DNA of 64,000 bases from Rhodobacterales bacterium (GTDB lineage: Bacteria > Pseudomonadota > Alphaproteobacteria > Rhodobacterales > Rhodobacteraceae). Made by a program: the position numbers and the translations under genes. The notes below the pieces were generated by a model that was not told the DNA's origin, did no database searches, and saw only the letters and a list, made by a program, of their open reading frames with translations. The stretch spans positions 29,393 through 93,392 of the forward strand of contig JANPKV010000389.1 of assembly GCA_031426185.1 (NCBI GenBank), in the 5' to 3' direction. This document shows positions 13,135 through 30,137 of this stretch, piece after piece; position 1 is the stretch's first letter, and each line of letters opens with the position of its first letter.

Positions 13135-13146
13135 GATGGGACGGTG

Positions 13147-13749
13147 ATGTCGGAACGATTTGCCGATCTGAAGAAGATCCCGAAGCAGCCCGCCGCGCGT
13201 CTGCTCGCGCTTGGCAATGCGCGGCTGCAGTCGCGGCTGAAATCGCCCGCCAGCGCCAGTGTTGCGGATGTCCTGATCGAACTGGAGGCAGCGGATGCGC
13301 TGGTGGACATGCTGCGGCTGCTGTCGGTGGCGCTTCCCGGACGCGAGCGGGCCTGGTGGGCCTGCCTTGCCGCGCGCGATCTGCTGGGCCCGTCGCCCGA
13401 GAAGGTCCCCGCGACGCTGATCGCTGCCGAAAACTGGGTGCGCCAGCCCGGCGATCCGACGCGCGTCGCCCTGCGGGCCGCGCTGGATGCGGTCGAAAGC
13501 GACGACGACGTATCGCTTTGCGCGACATCGGCGATATTTGCGGATGGGACGCTGGGGCCCGGAGAGATGTCGCATCACGCGGCCCCGCCCGGTGCTGCCG
13601 AGACCGCGGCCTTTGGCATGAACGTCATGGCCATGGGCGTGAACAGCCGCGATTTCAGCGCCGAGGCGAACCGACTGATCGACCGCGCGCTGGACATTGC
13701 CCGGGGCGGCAATGGCAGGACCGCCGCCAGCAAAGGTGACCTCTCATGA
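13147..13749 (+). CDS. Hypothetical protein between vgrG and the PAAR gene (family not recognised)
   Basis: ~200 aa, Ala/Leu-rich and probably helical. No signal peptide or TM segment. Its stop overlaps the PAAR start (ATGA at 13746-13749), and codon bias resembles its neighbours. Confidence 0.7.
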   Translation: MSERFADLKKIPKQPAARLLALGNARLQSRLKSPASASVADVLIELEAADALVDMLRLLSVALPGRERAWWACLAARDLLGPSPEKVPATLIAAENWVRQPGDPTRVALRAALDAVESDDDVSLCATSAIFADGTLGPGEMSHHAAPPGAAETAAFGMNVMAMGVNSRDFSAEANRLIDRALDIARGGNGRTAASKGDLS

Positions 13750-14057
13750 GCTTTCCCCAGGCCCGCATGTCCGATCTGCACGTCTGCATGCCGCCCATGC
13801 TGCCCGCACCCACGCCGATCCTGCCGCCCTGCGCCGTGACGGTGATGGTGAACAACCTGTTCGCCGCACGGATGGGTGACATGGCACCGGGCGTTCCGAT
13901 GCCGCCCGCCCTTCCGGTCCCGGTTCCCCATCCGTTCATCAAGGGATCGGCGACGGTGTTGATCATGAATCAGCCCGCACTGCGCGCCATTGTCGACCCG
14001 TGTTCGTGCGGCGGCATGGTGGTGCTCGCGTCGTTCAACGTCTTGACCGGGGGCTGA
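13746..14057 (+). CDS. PAAR-domain spike-tip protein (minimal, no extension)
   Basis: 103 aa. Three PAAR-like repeats are visible: QARMSDLHVC, NNLFAARMGDM, NQPALRAIVDPCSCGG. Confidence 0.8.
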   Translation: MSFPQARMSDLHVCMPPMLPAPTPILPPCAVTVMVNNLFAARMGDMAPGVPMPPALPVPVPHPFIKGSATVLIMNQPALRAIVDPCSCGGMVVLASFNVLTGG

Positions 14058-14063
14058 CGCGGC

Positions 14064-15566
14064 ATGCCGGTGACGTTGCGGTTTCAGTCGACCGGTGTGG
14101 TGCCGGGCAACGCGCAGCCCGTCGTGATGCGCGGCGGGTCGTTGACGATCGGACGTGGCGAAGAGAATGACCTGCACCTGCCGGATCCTGACAAGCTGCT
14201 GTCCAAGCGCCACTGTGTCATCGAGGAACAAGACGACCATGTATCGGTGATCGACCTGTCGACCAACGGGACCTTCCTCAATTACAGCAAGTCGGCGCTC
14301 GGCCCCATTCCCTCGCCGCTGCACGATGGTGACATCCTGACGATGGGCCCCTACGAATTGCTCGTGGAGGTGACGGCGGCCCGTGCGCCAGCCGGAATCC
14401 CCGCTCCGCTGGAGGAAGGGCCCGCGTCGCATGGTCGTGCGGCCGGGGGAATGCTGGGGCTCGACCTGCTGGATGATCCCTCGCACGGGGGCGGCGTGGA
14501 TTTTCTGGACGACCTTCTGGGGGGCGGCGGGCCGAAAGGTCCACCAAGCCTGCAGCGCCCGCAATTGGGCGATGATGGGCTTCTGCCGCCGCTCGGGGTC
14601 GACGACCTGATGGCCCCGTCTGCGGAGACCGGTCCGCCGCAGGGGGCAAGCAGACCCGCCCATTCCCCGTCCGTGCAGGACCACTTCGCCCCGCCCGCCC
14701 GCGTGACCACGGCGATACCCGACGACTGGGATGATCTGCTGGACCCGTTGGCAAATCCTGGCGCGTCAGATCCTTTTGCCGCAGCGCCGCAGGACCTGCC
14801 TTCTGCGGGTGCGGGCAACCCTGTCCACATTCCGGATGATTTTCCGTCGCAGGGGCCAGGCGCTGCCGCAGTCCCCTTTGATCCGCCGCAGCAGTCTCCG
14901 TTCACGACGGTGCCGCCGGTCCAACCCGCCGTCGCGCCGCTTGACATGGTGACACGCCCGACCGCGGCCTCGGTGCCCGTGCCCGACGATGCCGCTGCGC
15001 GGGCGTTTCTCGCGGCGCTTGGCGCGCCGCAGATGGCCATTCCCGCAGAAGACCTGCGGCCGACCCTGTCGCGTCTGGGACAGGTTCTGCGCATCATGGT
15101 TCAGGGCCTTCGCGAAGTGCTGATGACCCGCACTTCGATCAAATCCGAATTCCGCATGCAGCAGACCATGATCACGTCAGGCGGCAACAATCCTCTGAAA
15201 TTCTCGATCAGCCTCGAGCAGGCAATCGAGGCCTTGGTCAAGCCCACCACGCAAGGGTATCTCGACCCGGTCGCGGCGGCCGAGCAGGCGCTGCGTGACA
15301 TCAAGGCCCACGAGGTCGCGATGATGACGGGCATGGAGGCCGCGCTGAAGGGTCTGCTGAAGCGTCTTGATCCGCAGCAGCTGGAAGGAAAACTCGAGAC
15401 AAGCAGCGGGTTTGGTTCTATCCTCAGAGGCAAGGAGGCCCGGTATTGGGACGCTTACCTCAAGATGTACGCAGAAATTTCCGATCAGGCCGAAAACGAT
15501 TTTCACGAGCTGTTCAGCCGAGAGTTCGCCCGCGCCTATCAGGACCAGCTTGACCGACTGAAGTGA
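14064..15566 (+). CDS. fha: T6SS FHA-domain protein Fha/TagH (ImpI)
   Basis: 500 aa. N-terminal FHA domain (GSLTIGRGEENDLHLPD...SKRHCVI...DLSTNGTFLN), a long Pro-rich linker, and a TagH-type C-terminal domain. Confidence 0.9.
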   Translation: MPVTLRFQSTGVVPGNAQPVVMRGGSLTIGRGEENDLHLPDPDKLLSKRHCVIEEQDDHVSVIDLSTNGTFLNYSKSALGPIPSPLHDGDILTMGPYELLVEVTAARAPAGIPAPLEEGPASHGRAAGGMLGLDLLDDPSHGGGVDFLDDLLGGGGPKGPPSLQRPQLGDDGLLPPLGVDDLMAPSAETGPPQGASRPAHSPSVQDHFAPPARVTTAIPDDWDDLLDPLANPGASDPFAAAPQDLPSAGAGNPVHIPDDFPSQGPGAAAVPFDPPQQSPFTTVPPVQPAVAPLDMVTRPTAASVPVPDDAAARAFLAALGAPQMAIPAEDLRPTLSRLGQVLRIMVQGLREVLMTRTSIKSEFRMQQTMITSGGNNPLKFSISLEQAIEALVKPTTQGYLDPVAAAEQALRDIKAHEVAMMTGMEAALKGLLKRLDPQQLEGKLETSSGFGSILRGKEARYWDAYLKMYAEISDQAENDFHELFSREFARAYQDQLDRLK

Positions 15567-16938: not shown

Positions 16939-18306
16939 ATGCCCGATGAAGACCCCTTTGCCGAGCAGGACGACACCGAAAAGACGGTGATCCGGCCCAA
17001 CCCGGCCGGCCGCAGGGCCGGGGTTGCGGCCCCTGCACCCCGCAGCACCGCCCCGGCCTCTGAGCCAGTAGCGGCCCCGGCCGCCAAACGCAGCGTCGAG
17101 CCGTCGATCGAGGCCGGGTTGACGGGGATGAACCCCTTGAACGCGGCGGCGGCAACGCTGTTTTCGCTGGTCAGCCGCATTCGCAACCGCGCACAGCATC
17201 TGGACCCCGAGGCGCTCCGCCGTTCGGTTGTCGCCGAAGTGCGGGGGTTCGAGGCGCGCGCCTTGCAGGCGGGCATCGATCCCCAAGCCGTCAAGGTTGC
17301 CCGCTATGGCATCTGCGCGACGCTGGACGATGTCGTGCTGAACACGCCCTGGGGCGGCACCTCGGTCTGGGCCCAGCAAAGCATGGTCGGAACCTTCCAC
17401 CGCGAAACGGTCGGTGGCGACCGGTTCTATGATCTTCTCGCGCGGCTGGAGCAGGACCCCGGTCGCAACATCGACCTGCTGGAATTTCTTTACATGTGCC
17501 TCTCGCTTGGTTTCGAGGGGCGTCTGCGCGTGGAACAGGGGGGTGCCGACAAGCATCTGAACGTCCGTGCCGGCCTTGCGCGGATCATCCGGGCCCAACG
17601 CGGCGAGGTGGAACAGTCCTTGTCTCCACATTGGCCGGGCGTGCAAAAGCCGCATCGCGCCCTGTCGGCGTGGAAGCCGTTCTGGATCGCGGTCGGGGCG
17701 GTTGCCGCACTTTTAGGCACGGGCTTTGTCGGGCTCAGCTGGGCGCTGTCAAACCAGACCGAGCGTCTGTTGGGCCAGATCAGCGCGCTGGACCCCGGCG
17801 GCGTGGCCACCCTGGAACGTCGCGCGCCGCCCGTTGTGCCGAAACCGACCGTGGATGACGAGGCGCAGCTGAAGCGCGTTTCCGGGTTCCTTGAAAAAGA
17901 GATTGAAGAGAAACTGGTGACGGTGTTTCAGGATGCCAACACGATCACGATCCGGCTGGCCGGGTCGGGCATGTTCGGGTCGGGGTCCGACAGTCTGAAA
18001 GAGGAGTTCCAGGTGCCGCTGCAACGCGTGGCGGCGGCGCTGAAAGAAACCACGGGGCCCATCATCGTGGTCGGCCATTCCGACAACCAGCCGATCAAGA
18101 CAGCCAGATTTCCGTCGAATATGCACCTGTCGTTGGCCCGGGCCGAAGCGGTCACGCGAACGCTGGCAGAGCTGGTGGAGGACAAGTCGCGGCTGTCTGC
18201 CGAAGGTCAGGCAGACAAGCATCCGATCGTAAGCAATGACACTGCCGAAGGGCGCGCCCAAAACCGGCGCATCGAGATCGTGCTGGTGCGGGAAAGGGCC
18301 CAATGA
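16939..18306 (+). CDS. tssL: T6SS membrane-complex protein TssL (DotU) fused to a C-terminal OmpA/MotB peptidoglycan-binding domain
   Basis: 455 aa. DotU core (ICATLDDVVLNTPWG, YMCLSLGFEGR), one TM segment, then an OmpA-like end (VVGHSDNQP...LSLARAEAV...NRRIEIVL). Confidence 0.92.
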   Translation: MPDEDPFAEQDDTEKTVIRPNPAGRRAGVAAPAPRSTAPASEPVAAPAAKRSVEPSIEAGLTGMNPLNAAAATLFSLVSRIRNRAQHLDPEALRRSVVAEVRGFEARALQAGIDPQAVKVARYGICATLDDVVLNTPWGGTSVWAQQSMVGTFHRETVGGDRFYDLLARLEQDPGRNIDLLEFLYMCLSLGFEGRLRVEQGGADKHLNVRAGLARIIRAQRGEVEQSLSPHWPGVQKPHRALSAWKPFWIAVGAVAALLGTGFVGLSWALSNQTERLLGQISALDPGGVATLERRAPPVVPKPTVDDEAQLKRVSGFLEKEIEEKLVTVFQDANTITIRLAGSGMFGSGSDSLKEEFQVPLQRVAAALKETTGPIIVVGHSDNQPIKTARFPSNMHLSLARAEAVTRTLAELVEDKSRLSAEGQADKHPIVSNDTAEGRAQNRRIEIVLVRERAQ

Positions 18307-21300: not shown

Positions 21301-21917
21301 CCAAGGCAGACATCGCCATGGCCGATTTTACCAAACTCTTCGCACCGGCAGGTCTGATCGACACCTTCTTTACCGAGAATCTGGCGAAGTTCGTCGACCA
21401 GCGCAGCCGCCCCTGGACCTTCAAGAAGGTCAACGATGCCGATCTTGGCATCTCTCCGGCGGTGCTGGAACAGATGCAGTTCGCTGCCGAAATTCGCGAT
21501 GCGTTCTTTGCCGGGGGACCTGCCCCACGCGTGCAGTTCCAGATCACGCCCGAGGCGCTTGATCCCAAGGCTGACGGCATCACGCTGGAAATCGACGGTC
21601 AGCCGGTGACGTTCAGGCACAAGGATGGCCAGCCCCGCCCGGGTGCGATCGTCTGGCCAGGGTCCGTGGGCCTGGCGCGGGTGTCGTTCGATCCGTCTTC
21701 GCAGGGCTCGGAAAGCACGCTGTCGCGCGATGGGCCCTGGGCCTGGTATCGCCTGCTTGATGCGGCGGAAATCCGCAAGACCAACGTGTCGGACCGCAGT
21801 CGGCTGATCTTCAACGTAGGGGGGCGGATCGTGATCTTTCAGATGCAGTCGGGGTCGGTCCTGAACCCGTTCAATCTGCCCGCCTTGCAAAAGTTTGCCT
21901 GTCCGAAGTCGTTCTGA
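18303..21917 (+). CDS. tssM: T6SS membrane-complex protein TssM (IcmF)
   Basis: 1204 aa. N-terminal TM segments, Walker A GPPGAGKTT, and a long periplasmic IcmF-type domain. ATGA overlap with tssL. Confidence 0.95.
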   Translation: MIRNLLRAMFSGIGITVMVAVILSLCLWFLGGFLGFGDARPFDSVLGRLVGLAVLWIVALLVVLVILLTAKNRDQALAEDIVTAADPVTSADDQIGDELAEMRSKLKTALGKLRKSKGGRRNLYELPWYVIIGPPGAGKTTAIVNSGLQFPLADEMGAGAIGGVGGTRNCDWWFTNNAVLVDTAGRYTTQESDASADNSAWLGFLALLKKHRSRQPINGAVVAISLSDLSMQDETTQKAHAVAVRRRLHELREKLGVRFPVYVLFTKADLLAGFTEFFDGLGKEQREQVWGFTLPLPKGRTEASAVSAFEDEFGQLTSRLNTLSLERIQTETDPQRRSLIASFPAQVASVRQVAHDFLTEVFQENRFEHRQLLRGVYLTSGTQEGTPIDRLMMGMARTFGIGRQAIGSGRGTGRSYFLTNLFEKVMFPEAGLVSADDKVERRYRWTQRFAVAATVLIAIGMGTFWVRSYLGNSALADQTASQVAAFQAEAALIPASPISDSDLLLAVPALDILRAMPGADGTEAERQAGLGWGLFQGGVIANEARLAYRAALNQHFLPRLLLGQEDLMQASINDPDALFQALKIYLMLGLAGPMDKALVTEFLAAEWERSYGGAAREDLRASLLQHLDALLSQPMEAIALNNDLVTQVQGILTQMPQSQRVYNGIINSEQAKALPQWRLTDIGGPAISRAIVRSSGKPLNEGIEGIFTYAGFHDVFLEEALKVTTQIQRDSFVLGAAATEQSDAALLAISRDVLALYFNDFVARYDQMLGDIDIIPMESLAHSVEVTNVLSGPASPIVSVLTAIADETRLTENREPAADPAADPAADPAADNAAGAVADATLAVVGARLRRGLSPEARIFKDALEASSASESGGDPRPLGSYVEDRFKPLHEMVLRTDGQPSQLDGLIDVLVEVNQELNKLSFAGGVGNPQGENTAVQRLTETASRLPGPIQRWAAQITTGSSGIAADGTRSGINARWQSTVLPFCEQATANVYPFDRRAKADIAMADFTKLFAPAGLIDTFFTENLAKFVDQRSRPWTFKKVNDADLGISPAVLEQMQFAAEIRDAFFAGGPAPRVQFQITPEALDPKADGITLEIDGQPVTFRHKDGQPRPGAIVWPGSVGLARVSFDPSSQGSESTLSRDGPWAWYRLLDAAEIRKTNVSDRSRLIFNVGGRIVIFQMQSGSVLNPFNLPALQKFACPKSF
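20748..20795 (+). repeat. Four imperfect 12-nt tandem units encoding (PAAD)x4 inside tssM
   Basis: cctgcagccgac / ccagcagccgat / cccgccgcagac / cctgccgccgat encode PAADPAADPAADPAAD. Confidence 0.8.
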
Positions 21918-22618
21918 TGGAAAGACGGATGTCCGGATTTGGCGCCTTCGGAAAGATCCCTGCCCTGGGGGACTTCTTCCAGCTTGATCCGCCGCCTGGC
22001 TTTGTCGGTCCTTGGGATCGCTGGCTGCAGGAGGGGTTGCTGGCATCACGGGCCATACTTGCCGAGCGTTGGCAGAACTGCTTTTTGTCAGCGCCGATCT
22101 GGCGGTTTACCCTTGCGGCTGATCTCGCAGGTCCACAGGCGGTGCAAGGCGTGCTGATGGCATCGGTGGACCGTTCGGGTCGGCAGTTTCCGCTGACGCT
22201 GGTGGGCTCGTTGCGCGGAGCGACGCCGCCTGATGTTTTGGCTGCCCATCGGGCCGCGGAACATAGTTTTTCCGATCTGGAAGCCATCGCGCTGGAGGCG
22301 CTGGAGGACAGCATGACCCAGGCAAGCCTTGCAGAGCGGTTGCGGGCCATTCCCGTCGTAGAAGCCCGGCGCGCGCCGCCTGTCACCAAGGCTGCCTCCG
22401 CCATGGCCTTGCGCGGCAGGCATGACCTCGCCGCCGCGCTCTCGGCGCGGTTGGCGGGGGGCGGTTATCCAAGACCGTCGATCTGGACGGCAATGCTGCG
22501 AGAGGGTGAATTGTTGTATGTCCAAGACGGCTTGCCATCACCGTCCCGCATGGCGGATCTCTACGACAGCGATGCGGCCCTCTGGCAAGATGCCCTGACG
22601 GAGGGAGCACTGCCGTGA
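21917..22618 (+). CDS. tagF: T6SS post-translational repressor TagF (ImpM/DUF2094)
   Basis: 233 aa. GFGAFGKIPALGDFF is the TagF signature N-terminus. 1-nt TGATG overlap with tssM. Confidence 0.88.
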   Translation: MERRMSGFGAFGKIPALGDFFQLDPPPGFVGPWDRWLQEGLLASRAILAERWQNCFLSAPIWRFTLAADLAGPQAVQGVLMASVDRSGRQFPLTLVGSLRGATPPDVLAAHRAAEHSFSDLEAIALEALEDSMTQASLAERLRAIPVVEARRAPPVTKAASAMALRGRHDLAAALSARLAGGGYPRPSIWTAMLREGELLYVQDGLPSPSRMADLYDSDAALWQDALTEGALP

Positions 22619-23328
22619 CCCATTCGCGTTACTGCGCCGTGACCCATGTCGGTCGGGTGCGCAGCGTAAACGAGGACAGCATCCTCGCGCTACCGGACCT
22701 GAATATCTGGGCGGTTTCCGACGGGATGGGTGGCCACGCGGCAGGCGATTTCGCCAGCCAGACCGTTATCGAGGCGATTGCCGGTCTGCCGCCCGACCAG
22801 GAGCCGAAGGACCTGATGTCTTCGCTGCGCGCCGCCATCCTGTCCGCCCACCAGACGATCCAGGCAGAGGCCGCCCGCCGTAGCGCCGGGATCGTGGGCG
22901 CAACCGTGGTGACCCTGATGCTGGCGAATGGCCATTTCGTGGCATTTTGGGCGGGCGATAGCCGGCTGTACCGGCTTCGCGACGGCCAGATCGAGATGCT
23001 GACGACGGATCATTCGATGGTGGCCGAACTCGTACTGGCCGGGCTGATCGACTGGGATGAGGCCGAACATCATCCGCAATCCAACGCGATCACCCGCGCC
23101 GTGGGCGTCGGGGACGCATTGGAGATCGACAAGGTGCGCGGCGAGGTTCGGCCCGGTGACCGCTTTCTGCTTTGTTCCGACGGCCTGACGAAATATGCGG
23201 GCTTTCAGGCGATCCGGCAAACGTTGGCAGGCGCGCCGATCGAAACGGTCTGTGACAGCTTGCTGCAGATGGCCCTTCACGGCGGCGGGGCTGACAACAT
23301 TTCGGTGATTGTGGTCGACGCAGTCTGA
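22615..23328 (+). CDS. pppA: PP2C-family Ser/Thr phosphatase PppA
   Basis: 237 aa. VSDGMGGHAAGDFAS, LLCSDGL and GGADNISVIVV are PP2C motifs. GTGA overlap with tagF. Confidence 0.9.
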   Translation: MTHSRYCAVTHVGRVRSVNEDSILALPDLNIWAVSDGMGGHAAGDFASQTVIEAIAGLPPDQEPKDLMSSLRAAILSAHQTIQAEAARRSAGIVGATVVTLMLANGHFVAFWAGDSRLYRLRDGQIEMLTTDHSMVAELVLAGLIDWDEAEHHPQSNAITRAVGVGDALEIDKVRGEVRPGDRFLLCSDGLTKYAGFQAIRQTLAGAPIETVCDSLLQMALHGGGADNISVIVVDAV

Positions 23329-23332
23329 TCGG

Positions 23333-25474
23333 TCAGGGCCGTTGTGTCGTCAGGATCGAACTGTCGAGCGACGTCACCGGCGAGGTGAGCGTTTCAAGTG
23401 CTGCAGCGTAGCCCCAGGCCGATTCAGTCGTTGGGCGCAAGGAGTCAAAGATCGGCTGGGCGGAGTGGAGCACCATCACCCTTGTCTTGCCCAGTGTCGT
23501 CTCATCCACGACAAAAGCAAGTCCGTCTTTCTCCTTTGCCTCGGCGATGCTGTAGGCCACCCGCACCGAGACCGGCCCGCTGCGCCCGTCGCGCAGGGCC
23601 TTCACGCTGTTGTCTGCGCGTTTCAGGTTTGGCAGTAGATGGAACACGTTGCCTGACACATCCAGCGCCGAGACATAGATGTAGCCATCCACCACATTCG
23701 CAGGAATGACCACGTCGATCACCGGGTTTTCGCCGACAACATAAGTTCCACCGGGGTTCGCGTCAGGCCGGTCGCCATAACCGAAAGCGATCTCAAAGCC
23801 GCCTCCCGGTGCCGTGGGAAGGACCGCGTCGAACAGACACAAGGTGGGGTTCAGCACCGCGGTTTCCACGCGCAGTTCCCTTGGACCGATCACTGCGCGC
23901 AATGCATCTTCCAAGGCCACCTGCGTGGCACTGTCCGCAACATGACCCGTCACGAACACGGTGCTGTCGACCGGATATCCGGCAGCGGAGGGCGGCGCGA
24001 GCAGCAGCTCGCCACAGTCTGCCATCTCGATCAGAATGGGCCGCAGCATCGCCGTAGTCAGGAACCGGGGCCCAAGGTCAATCCGGACGGTCCCGTTCAA
24101 CGCCGCGGGCAGGGGCAATTCCATCAGGCGTTGCTGCTCGTCCCGGTTCAGTGTCAGGCCGGTGACTTCGACCGAATTGCCGCTGGAGGCCACACGCCAC
24201 TCCGGCAGTTGGGAAACGGCATCGATCAGTGACAGCACGTCGGGGCCCCAGCTGTCTGCAATATCACCCGTCGCAATCGACAGGTCCGCCGCGCCGCCGA
24301 TGTCGGTCATCTTGCCGGTCAGAGCCTGTTGAATGTCCTCGGACGGAACGACGCCGCTGGCCTGGGCCGGGCTGTCGGCCTTGCGTTCGACGACCAAGAC
24401 AAATGGGTCGGCCACCGGATATTTCGGCCCGAACAGTCCGGCGAAATACGCGCCTCCGCCGCCCAGGGCCGCCGCTGCCACGACCAGCGCTGCAAACAGG
24501 CCGCCGCGCCCAGACCTTGCCGGGGCTGCTGGCACGGGCTTCGACGCGGTCTCGGGCCTTGCCGACGGGGCCGTGCGTGATGGCTGCGTGGTTGAGCGCG
24601 GCACGATGACGGTGCGGTCCGCATCGCCCGAGGCAGCCGGCACATGGCCACGGCGGATCGTCTCCAGCACCGTCGCCGCATTGGGCAAGCGCTTGGCCGG
24701 ATCGGGCTGCGTCATCTGGTCAATCAGAGATTTCAGCGGCTCGGGCACGCCTGACGTGTCAAGCGGCTGCGACTTGCGCGTGACAACCTCCATCGGGTTG
24801 TTGCCCACTTGGGGTGGTTTGCCCCGGAATGTCGCCAACAAAAGCGCCCCGAGCGCATAGATGTCGGCCCGCTCGTCGGTTTTGCCCGCCAACTGTTCCG
24901 GCGCGGCATAGGCATACTTGCCCGCAAATTCGTTGCCCACGATGGTCTCGGCACCAGGATTGGAATCCTTGGCAATGCCAAAATCGATGATGACGGCCTC
25001 GGCCGGATTTCCGTTCCGCAGGATGATGTTGTCGGGAGACAGGTCACGGTGGACAATCTTCTTGGCATGGGCGGCAGCCAGCGCATCGCTGACACGACCC
25101 GCCACGATCATCAGGTCCTCGGCCGACATGCCCCCCGATTTCAGTTTGACGTCCAGCCCCGGACCCTCGACGTAGTCCATGATCAGATAGACCGTCCCGT
25201 CATCGGTGCGCTGGTTGTCGAAATACCGGACGATCCCGTCATGCCGGATTTCTCGGATGTCCTCCTCGCGCCGCATGAGCGAGAGATAATCCTCGTTGCG
25301 CGAAAACTCCGACCGCAACGCCTTGAGCGCCACGACCCGCCCCGAGATTTCGCTGCGGGCGCGATACACCTCTGACGTGCCGCCGCGACCGAGGGCGGCC
25401 TCGATGCGGTAGGTGTTGTTCAGAACATCGCCCGGCTGAAAGATCGGATCATGCAGGGAAGGGGACCCGCTCAT
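23333..25474 (-). CDS. ppkA: Transmembrane Hanks-type Ser/Thr kinase PpkA with an atypical periplasmic domain
   Basis: 713 aa. Kinase motifs VALKAL, HRDLSPDNIIL, DFGIAK, YAAPEQ. Pro-rich linker, then one TM segment (GGLFAALVVAAAALGGGGAYFAGLF). The ~350-aa periplasmic region ends in a DUF4384-like block (DGYIYVSALDVSGNVFHLLPN). Convergent with pppA, with 4 nt between the stops. Confidence 0.9.
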   Translation of the reverse strand: MSGSPSLHDPIFQPGDVLNNTYRIEAALGRGGTSEVYRARSEISGRVVALKALRSEFSRNEDYLSLMRREEDIREIRHDGIVRYFDNQRTDDGTVYLIMDYVEGPGLDVKLKSGGMSAEDLMIVAGRVSDALAAAHAKKIVHRDLSPDNIILRNGNPAEAVIIDFGIAKDSNPGAETIVGNEFAGKYAYAAPEQLAGKTDERADIYALGALLLATFRGKPPQVGNNPMEVVTRKSQPLDTSGVPEPLKSLIDQMTQPDPAKRLPNAATVLETIRRGHVPAASGDADRTVIVPRSTTQPSRTAPSARPETASKPVPAAPARSGRGGLFAALVVAAAALGGGGAYFAGLFGPKYPVADPFVLVVERKADSPAQASGVVPSEDIQQALTGKMTDIGGAADLSIATGDIADSWGPDVLSLIDAVSQLPEWRVASSGNSVEVTGLTLNRDEQQRLMELPLPAALNGTVRIDLGPRFLTTAMLRPILIEMADCGELLLAPPSAAGYPVDSTVFVTGHVADSATQVALEDALRAVIGPRELRVETAVLNPTLCLFDAVLPTAPGGGFEIAFGYGDRPDANPGGTYVVGENPVIDVVIPANVVDGYIYVSALDVSGNVFHLLPNLKRADNSVKALRDGRSGPVSVRVAYSIAEAKEKDGLAFVVDETTLGKTRVMVLHSAQPIFDSLRPTTESAWGYAAALETLTSPVTSLDSSILTTQRP

Positions 25475-25520
25475 GCTGAGGGTTCCATGCTGGCGGCTTC
25501 ATGACGGGCGTTCATGCGGG

Positions 25521-26066
25521 TCAGCTGAGCGCCTGAAACTCGACCCGCCGATTTACATCCGCGCGGGGATTGGCTGCGTCAAACGGATACCGGGCGCCCA
25601 CACCCACCGCTTCCATCTTTTCTGCCGGTATTCCACAATCGGTTTCAAGGTGACGCTTCACCTCTTCGGCGCGCAGTTTCGACAAGGATTCGTTGTAGCT
25701 GTCGGATCCCGAGCTGTCGGTATGCCCGACGATGCGGAACATCTGCACGTCCGTCGTTTTCATGACATTGCACAGCGCCACCAGCAAAGGCTTCTGGTCC
25801 GGACGCAGTGCGGAACTGTCGAAATCGAAACTGATGTTGATGTTCACCTGCTCGTCCACCGGCAATTCGGCGATCACGACCTGTGCGGTGGGCGCGGCAA
25901 CCGGTTCGGTCGTCGGCACGATCGCCAGGCCGCGCGTTTTCTGCTTGGCGAACGCGGCGGCAATCTCTGCCTCCGTCATCCCCTCAGTGGTCTGGGCCGA
26001 CACCGGCGCAATAGTTTGAACAACTATGATGGCGATGGCAGAAAGCCACAGATCAATTCGTTTCAT
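25521..26066 (-). CDS. Periplasmic OmpA/MotB-like peptidoglycan-binding protein, apparently co-transcribed with ppkA
   Basis: 181 aa. Signal peptide (…APVSA-QT) with no lipobox. OmpA_C motifs are present (FDFDSSAL, IVGHTDSSGSDSYNESLSKLRAEEV, NRRVEF). Lies 46 nt upstream of ppkA. Confidence 0.85.
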   Translation of the reverse strand: MKRIDLWLSAIAIIVVQTIAPVSAQTTEGMTEAEIAAAFAKQKTRGLAIVPTTEPVAAPTAQVVIAELPVDEQVNINISFDFDSSALRPDQKPLLVALCNVMKTTDVQMFRIVGHTDSSGSDSYNESLSKLRAEEVKRHLETDCGIPAEKMEAVGVGARYPFDAANPRADVNRRVEFQALS

Positions 26067-26223
26067 TGTAGGCTTTCACTTTCCTGGCTTAATTTCCATG
26101 ACAACCAAGGTACACCGAATTGCGCATCTCTGCCAGCATCTTTGGCGCCTCTCGTGTTGACTCGATGCATGGGTTCGCGCACCTTTTCCGTTGAGTTTCC
26201 TAGCACAGGCCAAGCTTTGTCAG

Positions 26224-27084
26224 ATGCGCAGTGTGCGATTGATCATCATTGCCATCATTGCGCTGACCATTCCGCTGGTATGGCTGGTCGTGCAAAGTCT
26301 GCTCCCCGAAGGCGGCATCACCGACGCGGGCAGCGGGTCGGGCATCGACAGCGGCGCCAGGATCGAGATCGAGGTCCTGCGCCAGCAGGTGGAGGGGCTG
26401 CAGGAACAGATTGTCGCGCTGGAACAGGAGGTCGCCGCGATCGGATCAGGCAGCGCGTCCTATGACGTTGTGGTGCCGGATGTTACGGACGGCGCCGCCG
26501 GGGCTCCCGCCTTCAACGACGGAGAAAACGCGATCGGGGATGCCTATGCCCAGGTGGTTCTGATCGCGAACCGCCGCACCGTGAACAAGTCCATCTCGGT
26601 GGCCTCGCCCAGCTTTCTGGAAGGTTTTCTCGGCCGCCCGCGCGAGGTTCTCAGCGACGACTGCGAGCCGATGACCAATCCCAAGCTGAAGGAACTGCTG
26701 ATCGTCGAGCAGGTCGGTCCGATCAAGGTGCAGATGCTGCGCCCGGCGCTCGACAGCATGAAACGGGTGTTCGAAAAGGTAGAGGCGGCTGACCCTGACC
26801 TTTACGCCCGCATCAGCACCGCAGGCTCGTTATGCGTGCGCCGCATCCGCGGCACGACGGACCGCACCTCCACGCATTCGTTTGGCCTGGCGGTGGATCT
26901 GAACATCGACGGCCAGCTTGATACCTTTACCGACGGCAAGACGCAGTTGGGACTAACGATCCTTGCGGACTTTTTCATGGCAGAAGGCTGGATCTGGGGA
27001 GCAGGTTTCGGGCGCGAGGATTCCATGCATTTCGAGGTCAGCCGTCAACAACTCGAGGCGTGGCGCGCGGAAGGGAAGATCTGA
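26224..27084 (+). CDS. Membrane-anchored M15/LAS-family peptidoglycan peptidase (VanY/TagX-like)
   Basis: ATG at 26224 gives MRSVRLIIIAIIALTIPLVWLVV (N-terminal TM segment). A heptad-like stretch follows (IEVLRQQVEGLQEQIVALEQEV). The C-terminus has LAS motifs STHSFGLAVDL and EDSMHFE. Confidence 0.8.
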   Translation: MRSVRLIIIAIIALTIPLVWLVVQSLLPEGGITDAGSGSGIDSGARIEIEVLRQQVEGLQEQIVALEQEVAAIGSGSASYDVVVPDVTDGAAGAPAFNDGENAIGDAYAQVVLIANRRTVNKSISVASPSFLEGFLGRPREVLSDDCEPMTNPKLKELLIVEQVGPIKVQMLRPALDSMKRVFEKVEAADPDLYARISTAGSLCVRRIRGTTDRTSTHSFGLAVDLNIDGQLDTFTDGKTQLGLTILADFFMAEGWIWGAGFGREDSMHFEVSRQQLEAWRAEGKI

Positions 27085-27411
27085 GGGGCGGTTGGAGGTT
27101 GTGGGTCAGAACGTAAGGCGTTGGGGCGTTTACGATGGATGAACGAGACGAGGCGGACACGGAAAGCCAAATTCGCAGGGATAATGCACAGGGTTCTTGC
27201 ACGAATGAGGAGCAAGAAAGACCGCACAACTTTCCGAGAAGCGATGATTCCCCGGGTAGTCACCGCGCCATTTTTAAAATTCACGGCTGAGCCGGTTTCA
27301 GGTGCAGCTTTGTTCTGTCGTCGAGTTCGTCTCAAGAAGAGGTGCCTCCGTTAGAGTTCCGATGTGTTTCTTTAAAGACGGGCAGGCATTCCCCGTTCAA
27401 TTTAGGAGACA
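27085..27411. other. Lower-GC non-coding spacer preceding the effector islet
   Basis: Visibly AT-richer than flanking genes. Only short, compositionally implausible ORFs on either strand. Confidence 0.5.
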
Positions 27412-27537
27412 ATGGCGCAGCAAAATCTGCTGGTCGATAGGGCCAGAAAGTTTGCCAGTTCATTCGGAAAACTTTATCATGCCGGCTACCTGTTGCGAAT
27501 TGTTGGCGGTCTAAGCTTCGGGAGATCGATATCATGA
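27412..27537 (+). CDS. Candidate 41-codon micro-ORF translationally coupled to the Tlde1-like gene
   Basis: AGGAG lies 5 nt upstream of the ATG. Product is MAQQNLLVDRARKFASSFGKLYHAGYLLRIVGGLSFGRSIS. Its TGA overlaps the next ATG (ATGA at 27534-27537). It is below the 60-aa track cutoff and has rare-codon usage, so it is uncertain. Confidence 0.25.
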   Translation: MAQQNLLVDRARKFASSFGKLYHAGYLLRIVGGLSFGRSIS

Positions 27538-28019
27538 AGTCTACGGCACCCGATCTTTTCTACAACATCGTCGAAGAGCGTTTGTTCGGTAGCCTCGATT
27601 CGAAAAACTTCGATGCCCATGCCGTCTCAGGCGGGCGCGCCGGATCTAAGACACCCGGTGCCGTGAACCAGGTCTTGGCCAACAATCCTTTTCTGACTGA
27701 CGTGAAACTCGGCGCCGGTCACCCAGGTGGCCCGCTGCCTATGGCGCTGTACACGCTCAGTTGTCATGAGACGCGGCCAAACTGGATACGGCTCAATCCC
27801 GACGACCCTCTGGATCTGGGCGATCGGGCGGGATTCGCCATCCACGGGAGAGGCCAGCGTGGCAGTGATGGCTGTATCGTGCCGTTTGATTTCAACGTTG
27901 TTCTGCGCCTGTACACTTTGACCAGAGCGCGCGCGGTGGCGGGGCGCGCGGCGCCGTCGCTTCAGGTTTTCGCGACGGGGGATCTTGGGCGGTTCGAGAA
28001 GATGGCAAGGCTTGCCTGA
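27534..28019 (+). CDS. DUF2778/Tlde1-like L,D-transpeptidase-fold protein (candidate T6SS peptidoglycan-targeting effector)
   Basis: 161 aa with no signal peptide. GPLPMALYTL...WIRLNP...GFAIHGRGQRGSDGCIVP places His and Cys 10 residues apart, as in the Tlde1 catalytic pair as I recall it. Third-position GC is lower than in the core genes. Confidence 0.7.
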   Translation: MKSTAPDLFYNIVEERLFGSLDSKNFDAHAVSGGRAGSKTPGAVNQVLANNPFLTDVKLGAGHPGGPLPMALYTLSCHETRPNWIRLNPDDPLDLGDRAGFAIHGRGQRGSDGCIVPFDFNVVLRLYTLTRARAVAGRAAPSLQVFATGDLGRFEKMARLA

Positions 28020-28225
28020 TCCTACACAGCGTCCCGCCGGGCCCCGTCAGAAGAAAGTCGCTTGAGCCGGGTCGGGTTGCTTTCGGGAACAACGATACCA
28101 CCACCAAGCGCCTGCGCACCGGCGTGTCGAAGAAATCCGACCTTGGTGGCGTGCTGCAGACCAACACTTTGGGCGACGAAATCTGTTCCCATTCCTCACG
28201 CGACACCGACGCGGTTTACGAGAGA

Positions 28226-28867
28226 CTACCGACCATTGGGTTCGCCAAGACCGAGGCCGCTCGTCACGAATTCCGTCATCTCTCGCACGACAAAGTCGAT
28301 ATCAAGATCGTCGGTTGATTTAAGGTCCAGCATGAACTGGACTTCGCTTTGCCGCAGCGCGTAATGTTCGGTTATCGCCCAGATGTGAAATTGCAAAAGC
28401 ACGGGGTCGACGCGACGGATCAAACCCGCATCCGCCCAGCCGTTGATCATCGCGGCGGCCTTTTGCATCGTCGTGCGCGACCGTGTGAAGCGGTCGAGGA
28501 GCATTGGCGCCCCTCGCATTACCTCTTTCGCAAACAGCTTTACCACATCGGGATTCTGCAGACAGAACCGGACTTTTCGTTCGATGTAGGAGGCAATGAA
28601 GGTCCTTGGATCTTCCGTTTCAGAGATCCCGTCAAAGAGGTCTACCCATGCTCCCGTGACGTGCTCCAGTGCATCCTCGTAAAGCTCTTCCTTGCTGGAA
28701 ATATAATAGTGCAGGCGCGTCTTTGTAATTCCGGCCCTATCTGCGATTCTCTGGGTTGATGCCCCCATCAAGCCATTCTCTGCAAATTCACTGATGGCGG
28801 CTGAACGGATCAGTCCACGAACCTCTTCGCGCCGTTCCACAAGGTCAGGTCTTTGCTTCGACATCAA
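28226..28867 (-). CDS. TetR/AcrR-family transcriptional regulator
   Basis: 213 aa. N-terminal HTH AAISEFAENGLMGASTQRIADRAGITKTRLHYYISSKEELY. Confidence 0.9.
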   Translation of the reverse strand: MMSKQRPDLVERREEVRGLIRSAAISEFAENGLMGASTQRIADRAGITKTRLHYYISSKEELYEDALEHVTGAWVDLFDGISETEDPRTFIASYIERKVRFCLQNPDVVKLFAKEVMRGAPMLLDRFTRSRTTMQKAAAMINGWADAGLIRRVDPVLLQFHIWAITEHYALRQSEVQFMLDLKSTDDLDIDFVVREMTEFVTSGLGLGEPNGR

Positions 28868-29036
28868 ATTACACCATCGCGCTCTTCATCATCCCTGCAG
28901 GACAGGTTCCCTGGTTGCCCGCTCTTACAGGCTCGCGATTTCAACTTCCAGCCCTCGACGGCTCTGGCCAGACCAGCCAGAGGATTTGCGCAAGCCCCGG
29001 ACCGCCCTGTGAGGGGCGCCTGCGGGTCGATCTGGC

Positions 29037-30137
29037 TCACCCGAGGCTCAGCCCGGTTTCTGCTGCGAACAGATGCGCATGATCAAGGGACAGGCATGCC
29101 AGCACTTCGTCACCAACAGCAAGGCTGGCGCGTCCGCGTAAAGTCACGGCCAGGTCCCCGAAAGCGGTGGAGAGGGTGAGATGTGTATCGATGCCGGTCG
29201 ATTCGACCAATGCCACGACACCTTGAAGGCTGCCTTGTTCGGGTGAGCCTTCGGTCAGGCTTTGGACGAAGATGTGCTCGGGTCTGATGCCGATGAGACA
29301 TTCCGCGGAACCGTCAGCCAGTGCAGCAGCTTTCGGTAAGGTGCCTAGCATGATCAGGTCTCCCGCATTGCCTTCCAGCACGTGCTGGCCCGGGATCGCT
29401 CGTATCTTCCCTTTGATCAAATTCATCGGTGGTGCACCGATGAAGGTCGCCACGAACGCATTTGCCGGATGGTCGTAAAGCTGGTGCGGAGAGCCGATCT
29501 GCTCGATCCGGCCGCCCCGCATCACGACAACCACATCGGCCATTGTCATCGCCTCGACCTGATCATGGGTGACAAAGATCACCGTGGCACGGAGCGTCCG
29601 GTGCAGGCGCTTGATCTCGGCGCGCATCTGTATGCGGAGTTGCGCGTCAAGGTTCGACAAAGGCTCGTCGAACAGAAAGACATCCGGGTTACGCACGATG
29701 GCCCTGCCCATCGCCACACGCAGGCGCTGGCCACCCGACAACTGTCGGGGATAGCGGTCCAACATGTCATTCAGGCCCAAGATGCGGGCAGCCTCGGCGA
29801 TCTTGCCTTGCGCATCCGACGGGGACATCCTGGCCATCCGCAATGAAAAGCCAAGATTCTCGCGCACAGTCATGTGCGGATAGAGCGCGTAGTTCTGGAA
29901 GACCATGGCGACGCCGCGGTTTTTCGGGGCTGTGTCGTTGATAACCCTGTCGCCAATCCGGATCTCGCCAAAATCGATGTGTTCCAGCCCCGCGATCATG
30001 CGCAAAAGTGTCGACTTTCCACAGCCGGACGGCCCGATCAGCGCAACAAAAGCCCCGTCCGGAACCGAAAGGTTGACATCGCGCAAGGCCGCCGCCGCGC
30101 CATAGTCTTTGCCGACTCCAATGAACTCGACCTTCAC
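29037..30137 (-). CDS. Sugar-type ABC transporter ATP-binding protein (MalK/UgpC-like)
   Basis: GTG at 30137 overlaps the upstream stop (GTGA). Walker A GPSGCGKST, signature LSGGQRLRV, Walker B FLFDEP, and a MalK-like C-terminal regulatory domain. Confidence 0.9.
   Translation of the reverse strand: MKVEFIGVGKDYGAAAALRDVNLSVPDGAFVALIGPSGCGKSTLLRMIAGLEHIDFGEIRIGDRVINDTAPKNRGVAMVFQNYALYPHMTVRENLGFSLRMARMSPSDAQGKIAEAARILGLNDMLDRYPRQLSGGQRLRVAMGRAIVRNPDVFLFDEPLSNLDAQLRIQMRAEIKRLHRTLRATVIFVTHDQVEAMTMADVVVVMRGGRIEQIGSPHQLYDHPANAFVATFIGAPPMNLIKGKIRAIPGQHVLEGNAGDLIMLGTLPKAAALADGSAECLIGIRPEHIFVQSLTEGSPEQGSLQGVVALVESTGIDTHLTLSTAFGDLAVTLRGRASLAVGDEVLACLSLDHAHLFAAETGLSLG

Follow-up and report, generated by a model that had tools for sequence, protein, structure and literature searches.

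A PpkA-type kinase with a predicted BON- and DUF4384-like periplasmic domain and its OmpA-like partner in the type VI secretion cluster of a Rhodobacterales bacterium

A stretch of 64,000 nucleotides from contig JANPKV010000389.1 of Rhodobacterales bacterium (GenBank assembly GCA_031426185.1, positions 29,393 to 93,392 of the forward strand), referred to as the window and numbered from its first nucleotide, was analyzed with regard to the PpkA-type protein kinase of a type VI secretion system (T6SS) and the OmpA-like protein encoded next to it. According to its open reading frame (ORF) and translation, ppkA (23333..25474, minus strand) encodes a Hanks-type Ser/Thr kinase of 713 aa with a predicted bitopic topology. 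Downstream, it faces tagF (21917..22618, plus strand; Pfam TagF_N, E 2.8e-36) and pppA (22615..23328, plus strand) encoding a PP2C phosphatase (Pfam PP2C_2, E 3.4e-14; NCBIfam Stp1, E 5.8e-61), and it converges on pppA with only 4 nt (23329-23332) between the stops. Upstream on the same strand lies the gene of a secreted OmpA-C-like protein of 181 aa with predicted peptidoglycan binding (25521..26066, minus strand), whose stop is separated from the ATG of ppkA by a spacer of 46 nt (25475..25520). An earlier note on this DNA had described ppkA as inverted, converging on pppA and following a secreted OmpA-like gene at this distance, and the coordinates proved exact. The spacer holds no terminator-like site as judged by a weak scan, and the promoter and terminator scan of the locus gave nothing beyond shuffle expectation. 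The kinase gene occurs as a single copy in the genome (100% self-match). All or part of window positions 23000-26300 was present in 20 DNA-type metagenome runs, and a look for RNA or protein data covering these positions found none.

The left half of the window carries the T6SS genes tssA, tssB, tssC, hcp, tagJ, tssE, tssF, tssG, clpV, vgrG, a DUF6931 gene, a PAAR gene, fha, tssK, a long-form tssL, tssM, tagF, and pppA, all assigned by Pfam. Divergently from the ompA-like gene, a TagX-like membrane-anchored M15 peptidase is encoded on the plus strand (26191..27084, likely start ATG at 26224; Pfam Peptidase_M15_4, PF13539, E 2.4e-10). This gene had escaped the earlier note, and it permits a purely structural reading of the ompA-like gene after the manner of TagN and TagX, to which we return below.

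The cytoplasmic kinase domain covers residues 22-264 (24683..25411, minus strand; Pfam Pkinase, E 6.8e-37), and its catalytic motifs K51, HRD142, DFG164, and APE191 are intact, so that by sequence the kinase looks active. It is followed by a linker rich in Pro, Ala, Ser, Thr, and Arg (about residues 266-322) and by a single transmembrane span at about residues 324-348 (24431..24505, minus strand), for which the Kyte-Doolittle scale gave a top 19-residue window of 1.85 at residue 326. The N-terminal side of the hydrophobic span is Arg-rich, and the only two Cys residues of the protein, Cys487 and Cys546, both lie C-terminal of it and are invariant in an alignment with 38 homologues. PpkA is therefore predicted to be a bitopic protein of the inner membrane with a C-terminal periplasmic domain of 365 aa. 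A Hanks-type kinase domain with Lys, HRD, DFG, and APE, this predicted topology, the genetic company of PppA, Fha, and TagF and the co-inheritance with the T6SS described below are the features of the PpkA/TagE kinases, and the identification as a T6SS-linked Hanks kinase is well supported by the Pfam match, the motifs, and the fha/tagF/pppA context.

For the periplasmic part, residues 346-713 were aligned with the 38 homologues (39 rows) and modeled by AlphaFold2, with a mean predicted local distance difference test score (pLDDT) of 92.3 and a predicted template modeling score (pTM) of 0.70. The model is wholly accounted for by three alpha/beta modules of about 50-65 aa, located at about positions 14-55, 64-122, and 129-195 of the ectodomain, and one beta-rich domain at about positions 205-368. 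From the model and its structure matches, the modules were assigned as three tandem BON- or ring-building-motif-like units at about residues 358-540 of PpkA (23855..24403, minus strand), which include the invariant Cys487. The beta-rich domain was assigned by hhalign and AlphaFold2 as a divergent DUF4384 beta-sandwich at about residues 550-713 (23336..23827, minus strand), with the invariant Cys546 just N-terminal of it. As modeled, the ectodomain thus joins a triplet of BON/ring-building-like modules to a DUF4384 beta-sandwich of divergent sequence. The earlier note had proposed two alpha/beta modules followed by a DUF4384-like block, of which the block stands and the module count has to be raised to three.

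The assignment of DUF4384 relies on profile comparison. The direct Pfam match (16.6 bits, E 0.0086, residues 595-628) is below the 27-bit cutoff, while hhalign of the ectodomain alignment against nine threshold-passing DUF4384 proteins (28-53.6 bits) gave 99.9% at E 3.2e-34 over ectodomain residues 159-357 (186 columns), and the nearest protein atlas clusters carry PF14326. The periplasmic domain of Pseudomonas PpkA is of the vWA type. No vWA family was matched here in Pfam at E ≤ 0.1, and the AlphaFold2 model and the DUF4384 homology account for the region; the view of the earlier note that the periplasmic part is not a vWA domain was upheld in Pfam, the model, the fold searches, and hhalign. 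A PDB sequence search of the ectodomain returned chance matches to T-cell receptors only (E ≥ 0.66).

At the level of the fold, the best Foldseek matches were periplasmic ring modules of type III secretion systems (T3SS), namely YscD (E 2.8e-4), CdsD, and PrgH. The BON proteins OsmY, DolP, DolP of N. gonorrhoeae, and Rv0899 were matched as well, OsmY and DolP at E about 1e-3, and the T3SS ring modules scored as well as these two. A fold search independent of Foldseek placed the B/BON domain of Rv0899 on top (Z 8.8, root-mean-square deviation 2.7 Å, 106 residues, model range 13-123), and residues 205-368 of the model resembled Ig- and macroglobulin-type sandwiches with Z about 8, a generic match. 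By BLASTP, the first two modules resemble the repeated unit of the protein P0256 (best E 5e-7), which carries a Pfam BON match (E 1.3e-28) and a C-terminal OmpA domain; BON-like repeats are fused to OmpA domains also in P0264. Among 38 distant representatives scanned, the BON-DUF4384 module is fused to TssL/DotU in P0260 and P0274 and to a class 3 cyclase in P0267, and it also stands alone.

The BON-like appearance allows a reading in which the modules bind phospholipid in the manner of DolP and OsmY and report damage of the outer or inner membrane, equivalent to the TagQRST response of Pseudomonas, with the OmpA-like protein as an accessory only. Besides the Foldseek matches to OsmY and the DolP proteins, it can draw on BON or BON_like Pfam matches, all sub-threshold, in 9 members of the scanned set of 38 distant relatives, and membrane damage is an established trigger in P. 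aeruginosa (reported in PMC13713981). However, PpkA itself has no Pfam match to BON (PF04972) or BON_like (PF21923) at E ≤ 0.1, the fold is shared with ring modules that do not bind lipid, and the peptidoglycan-directed neighbors, i.e. the OmpA-like protein, the M15 peptidase, and the caspase-Sel1-PG_binding_1 protein described below, are left unexplained. We consider such a lipid sensor quite improbable.

The OmpA-like protein has a conserved order in an alignment of 44 sequences: a signal peptide without lipobox Cys, a conserved helix, the motif QKTRGL, a variable linker, and the OmpA domain (residues 80-173; Pfam OmpA, E 1.6e-17). Invariant in these sequences are Q42, R45, G46, and L47, giving the motif Q..RGL, as well as C99 and C144 of the OmpA domain and the motifs GHTD...YN..LS..RA and NRRVEF. 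We take TD...YN..LS..RA and NRRVEF to be a putative peptidoglycan-binding signature. AlphaFold2 modeled the domain with pLDDT >90 and a short helix at residues 32-42, whereas residues 46-61 appeared disordered (pLDDT <50). The anatomy would be that of a wall-bound domain bearing a short binding motif on a tether. With an OmpA-C-like domain encoded within a T6SS cluster, the protein also has the hallmark of TagN-type accessories.

Co-folding with the OmpA-like protein, which the earlier note had suggested, was carried out with the ectodomain alignment (39 rows) and residues 26-181 of the partner (44 rows). The runs gave interface scores (ipSAE) of 0.60, 0.55, and 0.56 (median 0.56) compared to 0.00 for the best of three controls, with contact agreement of ≥92% and a partner pLDDT of at least 66. 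Calibration of the score had 116 of 157 solved complexes and 2 of 215 mismatched pairs passing the mark; only 18 of these 157 complexes did so at ipSAE ≤0.60, as did both mismatches, and with custom alignments these counts are rough. The co-fold is therefore a weak pass, which moves the case for binding only modestly upward.

The pair was further examined for its conservation. In a protein collection clustered at 90%, 559 ectodomain homologues were found at E ≤ 1e-3, with organism names of Paracoccaceae/Rhodobacteraceae or generic ones ("Pseudomonadota bacterium"), and a 50%-representative library yielded 183 matches, the majority of them kinases about 700 aa in length. For neighborhood counts, 80 loci were kept of 237 relative-encoding stretches in species-representative genomes. 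Of the 74 loci with >700 nt of upstream sequence, 72 have the OmpA-like gene immediately before ppkA in the same orientation, and the gap to ppkA ranges from 1 to 267 nt with a median of 45 (70 loci with a computed gap). In two loci (L035, L055) the upstream gene was seen by tblastn coordinates, in L033 it is 867 nt away, and L070 has none. Where >2 kb of upstream sequence was available (72 loci), the M15 peptidase gene was divergent in 67, and where >1 kb was available downstream (69 loci), pppA was convergent in 54, so that the convergent ppkA/pppA layout noted earlier is itself conserved.

Co-occurrence was examined by hand cross-tabulation, without a statistical test, in a sample of the family with a single genome for each genus (401 genomes); related genomes in this sample are not independent. 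The ectodomain (E ≤ 1e-10) was present in 62 genomes and TssC (PF05943) in 104, the latter in 61 of the 62 sensor-positive genomes (exception G061) compared to 43 of the 339 sensor-negative ones. An orthologue of the OmpA-like protein (E ≤ 1e-25) was found in 60 genomes, of which 58 are sensor-positive and 2 sensor-negative. Together with the neighborhood counts, this supports the claim that the OmpA-like protein is a conserved operon partner of the kinase. Beyond the family, a search of 348 further alphaproteobacterial genomes returned three weak matches only (E 1e-6 to 1e-8), and the strong form of the sensor is restricted to the family in this sample. The combination of the BON-DUF4384 kinase with the OmpA-like protein is a lineage trait of Paracoccaceae.

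In 15 of the 69 loci, the flank of pppA, tagF, and tssM is missing and the ompA-like/ppkA pair is still together. From these loci it could be argued that ompA-like, the kinase, M15, and the caspase-Sel1 gene form a stand-alone cassette for cell-wall surveillance that merely sits beside the T6SS. The three unlinked loci annotated all have a Peptidase_C14 neighbor, with Sel1 and PG_binding_1 in L006 and L058 and as a caspase domain alone in L021, such a gene occurs in 45 of the 80 loci, and fusions of orthocaspases with DUF4384 are on record (PMC7475262). Nevertheless, the presence of TssC in nearly all sensor-positive genomes speaks for a T6SS function, TssC was found in all five genomes (5/5) in which the module lies apart from tssM, the unlinked copies scanned have no other FHA or PP2C partner adjacent to them, and in the window ppkA meets pppA at 4 nt. 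Hence, a T6SS-independent cassette appears very improbable.

The earlier note had further stressed that TagQRST are absent. Neither the scanned ORFs of the window nor the 15 kb preceding it gave a match to a TagR-type FGE-sulfatase, with TagQ, TagS, and TagT not individually searched for, and the sole PF03781 match of the genome is on another contig (C100). The lack of a TagR-type gene therefore holds, but it is not unusual: TagQRST is described as restricted to Pseudomonas and PpkA ectodomains as differing between species (PMC6082577), and a missing TagQRST is expected because the complex is specific to Pseudomonas.

As for the phosphorylation substrate, the kinases of Pseudomonas, Serratia, and Acidovorax act on Fha, and fha of the window (14064..15566, plus strand; FHA domain and T6SS_FHA_C by Pfam) encodes a candidate substrate or phospho-reader. 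In Agrobacterium tumefaciens, PpkA-dependent phosphorylation is reported on Thr14 of TssL, where it is read by Fha (PMC3953482), so that gating "through Fha phosphorylation", as formulated earlier, was overstated and represents one option only. The long-form TssL of the window, with an OmpA extension (16939..18306, plus strand; Pfam DotU and OmpA), begins with the motif DPFAE..D..[KR]TVI[KR]PNPGGR (16939-17010, plus strand), which is conserved in 6/6 TssL proteins compared and reads DPFAE..D..KTVIRPNP in the window. Its Thr16, invariant in the window and in 5/5 relatives, is a candidate phospho-acceptor by this comparison, and the substrate of PpkA could be Fha or TssL.

Comparison with known systems places the locus among variants of one pathway. 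As in the H1-T6SS of P. aeruginosa, a membrane-bound Hanks kinase belongs to a T6SS cluster that also encodes PppA, Fha, and TagF, and there the periplasmic domain receives input from a partner thought to dimerize the kinase (PMC13713981). Different are the ectodomain with three BON-like modules and DUF4384, the OmpA-like predicted wall binder, the separate convergent operon, and the missing TagR-type FGE-sulfatase gene. Serratia marcescens likewise lacks TagQRST; its RtkS is a small secreted periplasmic protein encoded beside genes of the threonine phosphorylation pathway, which according to PMC6082577 binds the periplasmic domain of PpkA and is needed for stability and activity of the kinase. 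Compared by description, RtkS has no recognized domain, whereas the partner described here combines a canonical OmpA-C-like domain with an N-terminal motif. In Acidovorax citrulli, the periplasmic domain of PpkA in the TssW-PpkA-Fha system also contacts an envelope protein, which sets the T6SS assembly site; the source, in which the term "OmpA" does not occur, presents TssW as an anchor in the outer membrane, the comparison again being by description (PMC12607579). Agrobacterium tumefaciens shares the alphaproteobacterial imp-type cluster with long-form TssL, TagF, PppA, Fha, and TagJ. There, however, tagF and pppA are fused, and ppkA is named next to this fusion in the same cluster (PMC3953482). 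In the window, tagF and pppA stand as two genes, and ppkA has the opposite orientation and forms a pair with ompA-like.

The peptidoglycan-binding accessory and the membrane-anchored M15_4 peptidase in a T6SS cluster without recognizable TssJ resemble in architecture TagN and TagX of Acinetobacter and Burkholderia (PMC5061870, PMC13584744), for which no operon coupling with a PpkA kinase is described. TagX of Acinetobacter is reported as a T6SS-essential peptidoglycan hydrolase with PF13539 and two predicted transmembrane segments (PMC5061870). The M15 protein of the window shows the same N-terminal membrane anchor (one transmembrane segment here, residues 15-35) and C-terminal PF13539 peptidase domain in a T6SS cluster, and its PDB sequence search gave nothing useful. 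More remote is YscD of the T3SS, with a cytoplasmic domain of the phospho-signaling type, one transmembrane segment, and three periplasmic alpha/beta ring modules, as is Rv0899 (ArfA/OmpATb) of M. tuberculosis, in which a BON domain is joined to an OmpA-like domain. For YscD/PrgH and Rv0899, the resemblance is at the fold level only (12-14% identity), and neither a kinase nor a T6SS is involved there.

Taken together, we put forward with even confidence for and against that PpkA serves as the kinase of the threonine phosphorylation pathway (PpkA/TagE) in an Agrobacterium-like T6SS, where a wall-tethered OmpA-like partner clusters the kinase. In this model, the OmpA-like protein would bind the cell wall via its C-terminal domain, while its N-terminal helix and the QKTRGL motif, on the flexible tether, would bind the ectodomain of PpkA. 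Kinase molecules might thereby be held and clustered at the wall, at the insertion site of the membrane complex and near the wall opening made by the TagX-like peptidase. Clustering or dimerization would lead to trans-autophosphorylation, by analogy with the TagR-dimer model (as given in PMC13713981) and the stabilization by RtkS (as given in PMC6082577). The kinase would then phosphorylate Fha or the N-terminal Thr of TssL, overcoming TagF, and PppA would reset the system. The pair may either read a signal, such as remodeling or damage of the wall, or only position the kinase; the sensing of cell-wall status or damage proposed in the earlier note was not directly supported. Precedents for periplasmic partners of PpkA are TagR/TagQ (PMC13713981), RtkS (PMC6082577), and TssW (PMC12607579). 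That a predicted wall-binding partner is almost always encoded with the kinase suggests a possible new mode of T6SS activation.

Several observations weigh against this proposal. BON domains of DolP and OsmY are tied to membranes rather than to peptidoglycan. Four of the 62 sensor-positive genomes lack an OmpA-like orthologue at E ≤ 1e-25. Adjacency of ompA-like and ppkA is not universal, as the more distant sensor subfamily (30-35% identity) shows: 7 genomes have the two genes 22-36 kb apart on one contig, 2 carry ompA-like immediately after the kinase, 4 have it on a separate contig, and in 2 it was not found. The pT+3 position of the TssL motif (Arg/Lys) is unlike the Agrobacterium site. 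Wall anchoring alone would be redundant because TssL has an OmpA domain of its own. Finally, the TagX-like neighbor and the undetected TssJ fit a structural, kinase-independent role of the OmpA-like protein of the TagN/TagX type.

The last point leads to the main rival, in which the ectodomain is a positional scaffold without sensing. It would dock the kinase on the membrane complex of the T6SS or on the envelope, similar to PrgH/YscD or to TssW-PpkA, while the OmpA-like protein and the M15 peptidase would be helpers of the TagN/TagX type that grip and open the wall for a TssJ-less machine, and the genetic linkage would reflect shared timing. The T3SS inner-ring domains YscD, CdsD, and PrgH at the top of the Foldseek list, the fusions of DUF4384 to TssL/DotU, and the TagN/TagX parallel, with an M15 gene of the TagX architecture (as outlined in PMC5061870), fit this rival equally well. 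A genome-wide search for TssJ (PF12790) gave no match, at a genome completeness of 89.97%. As TssJ is a divergent family, a missing Pfam match is no proof of its absence. Further support is given by another BON_like-DUF4384 protein, TonB-like in build and encoded beside the same cluster, which was found near the T6SS in 4/5 genomes checked, and by the distant subfamily, in which 22-36 kb separate the OmpA-like gene from the kinase, with sensor and TssC on the same contig. Against it stand the tight co-directional coupling of the pair (median 45 nt in 70 loci), its persistence in the 15 loci apart from tssM-tagF-pppA, the OmpA domain already present in TssL, and the weak and inconsistent phenotypes reported for TagN in a review (PMC13584744). 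Weighing both sides, we regard a scaffold without sensing as somewhat unlikely, and the wall-tethered, clustered kinase is retained as the preferred reading.

The operon of the TonB-like protein is located on the window's own contig on the minus strand (L091:12190-15081), just upstream of window position 1 (= L091 15394) and divergent from tssA, and it encodes ExbB, two ExbD proteins, and a TonB-like protein of 476 aa. The latter consists of an N-terminal anchor, a long Ala/Pro-rich spacer, and C-terminal BON_like (E 3.4e-4) and DUF4384 (E 1.2e-3) domains, and it matches the DUF4384 of PpkA by BLASTP (E 1e-5). Of the 5 complete genomes checked, 4 encode a homologue at a distance of up to about 4-13 kb from either TssC or the PpkA sensor.

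Caspase-type genes, present in the 45 loci mentioned above and including the closest relatives L002-L005, lie beside the M15 gene, often with PG_binding_1. No such gene was found at the corresponding position of the window. On the same contig (L091:8102-10174, 19-21 kb before the window start), a 37%-identical, secreted-looking Peptidase_C14 (caspase) protein with Sel1 repeats is encoded, which has intact AGHG and DSCR motifs. Where relatives carry the caspase gene, the window has an ORF for 161 aa (27534-28019, plus strand) in a stretch of lower GC content (26001-30000). It has no family match in Pfam, NCBIfam, or PDB; its motif HG...SDGC recalls catalytic sites of the L,D-transpeptidase type, and the ORF could represent T6SS cargo or an unrelated insertion.

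A far-reaching extension would make DUF4384 a periplasmic docking or receiver domain of the T6SS. An envelope module composed of the BON- and DUF4384-like ectodomain, the OmpA-like tether, the TagX-like peptidase, a secreted caspase-Sel1(-PG_binding_1) protease, and the ExbB-ExbD-driven, TonB-like BON-DUF4384 protein would then replace TssJ and TagQRST, and the caspase-like protease or the TonB-like protein, driven by the proton motive force, would act on DUF4384 and license the kinase at sites of wall remodeling or attack. We rate this extension as unlikely.

Two further observations concern the T6SS cluster itself. The DUF6931 and PAAR genes (window 13144-14057) are located directly after vgrG and before fha, and they are likely a spike-loading or adaptor pair. 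In genomes G133, G241, and G340 and in many other relatives, a second, weaker VipB/TssC-like match (about 145-170 bits) was found inside the T6SS cluster. It falls in a very long open frame, at a distance of about 13-16 kb from the true tssC, and in the window's genome the VipB/TssC match is single.

In a literature search that left most subscription journals outside, we found no paper joining DUF4384 with type VI secretion and none describing the PpkA/OmpA-like arrangement of Paracoccaceae. A bioRxiv kinase atlas lists a family "Proteo1" with DUF4384 or FGE-sulfatase tails, and neither "type VI" nor "PpkA" occurs in it. The arrangement is a variant of the known threonine phosphorylation pathway, and its "TagQRST absent" aspect is ordinary and already in print. 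Outside Pseudomonas, RtkS in Serratia and TssW in Acidovorax have so far been the sole additions to what is known about PpkA input, and the present locus offers a third input design, which is widespread in one family (62 of 401 sampled genera, 237 species-level genomes). With a confident ectodomain model, one obvious candidate partner, and cultured non-pathogenic hosts, among whose records are isolates of Sedimentitalea, Sulfitobacter, Marivita, and Albidovulum, this design is directly testable. Moreover, DUF4384 gains its first concrete functional context, as it forms part of a T6SS kinase, of TssL fusion proteins, and of a TonB-like anchor protein encoded next to the cluster.

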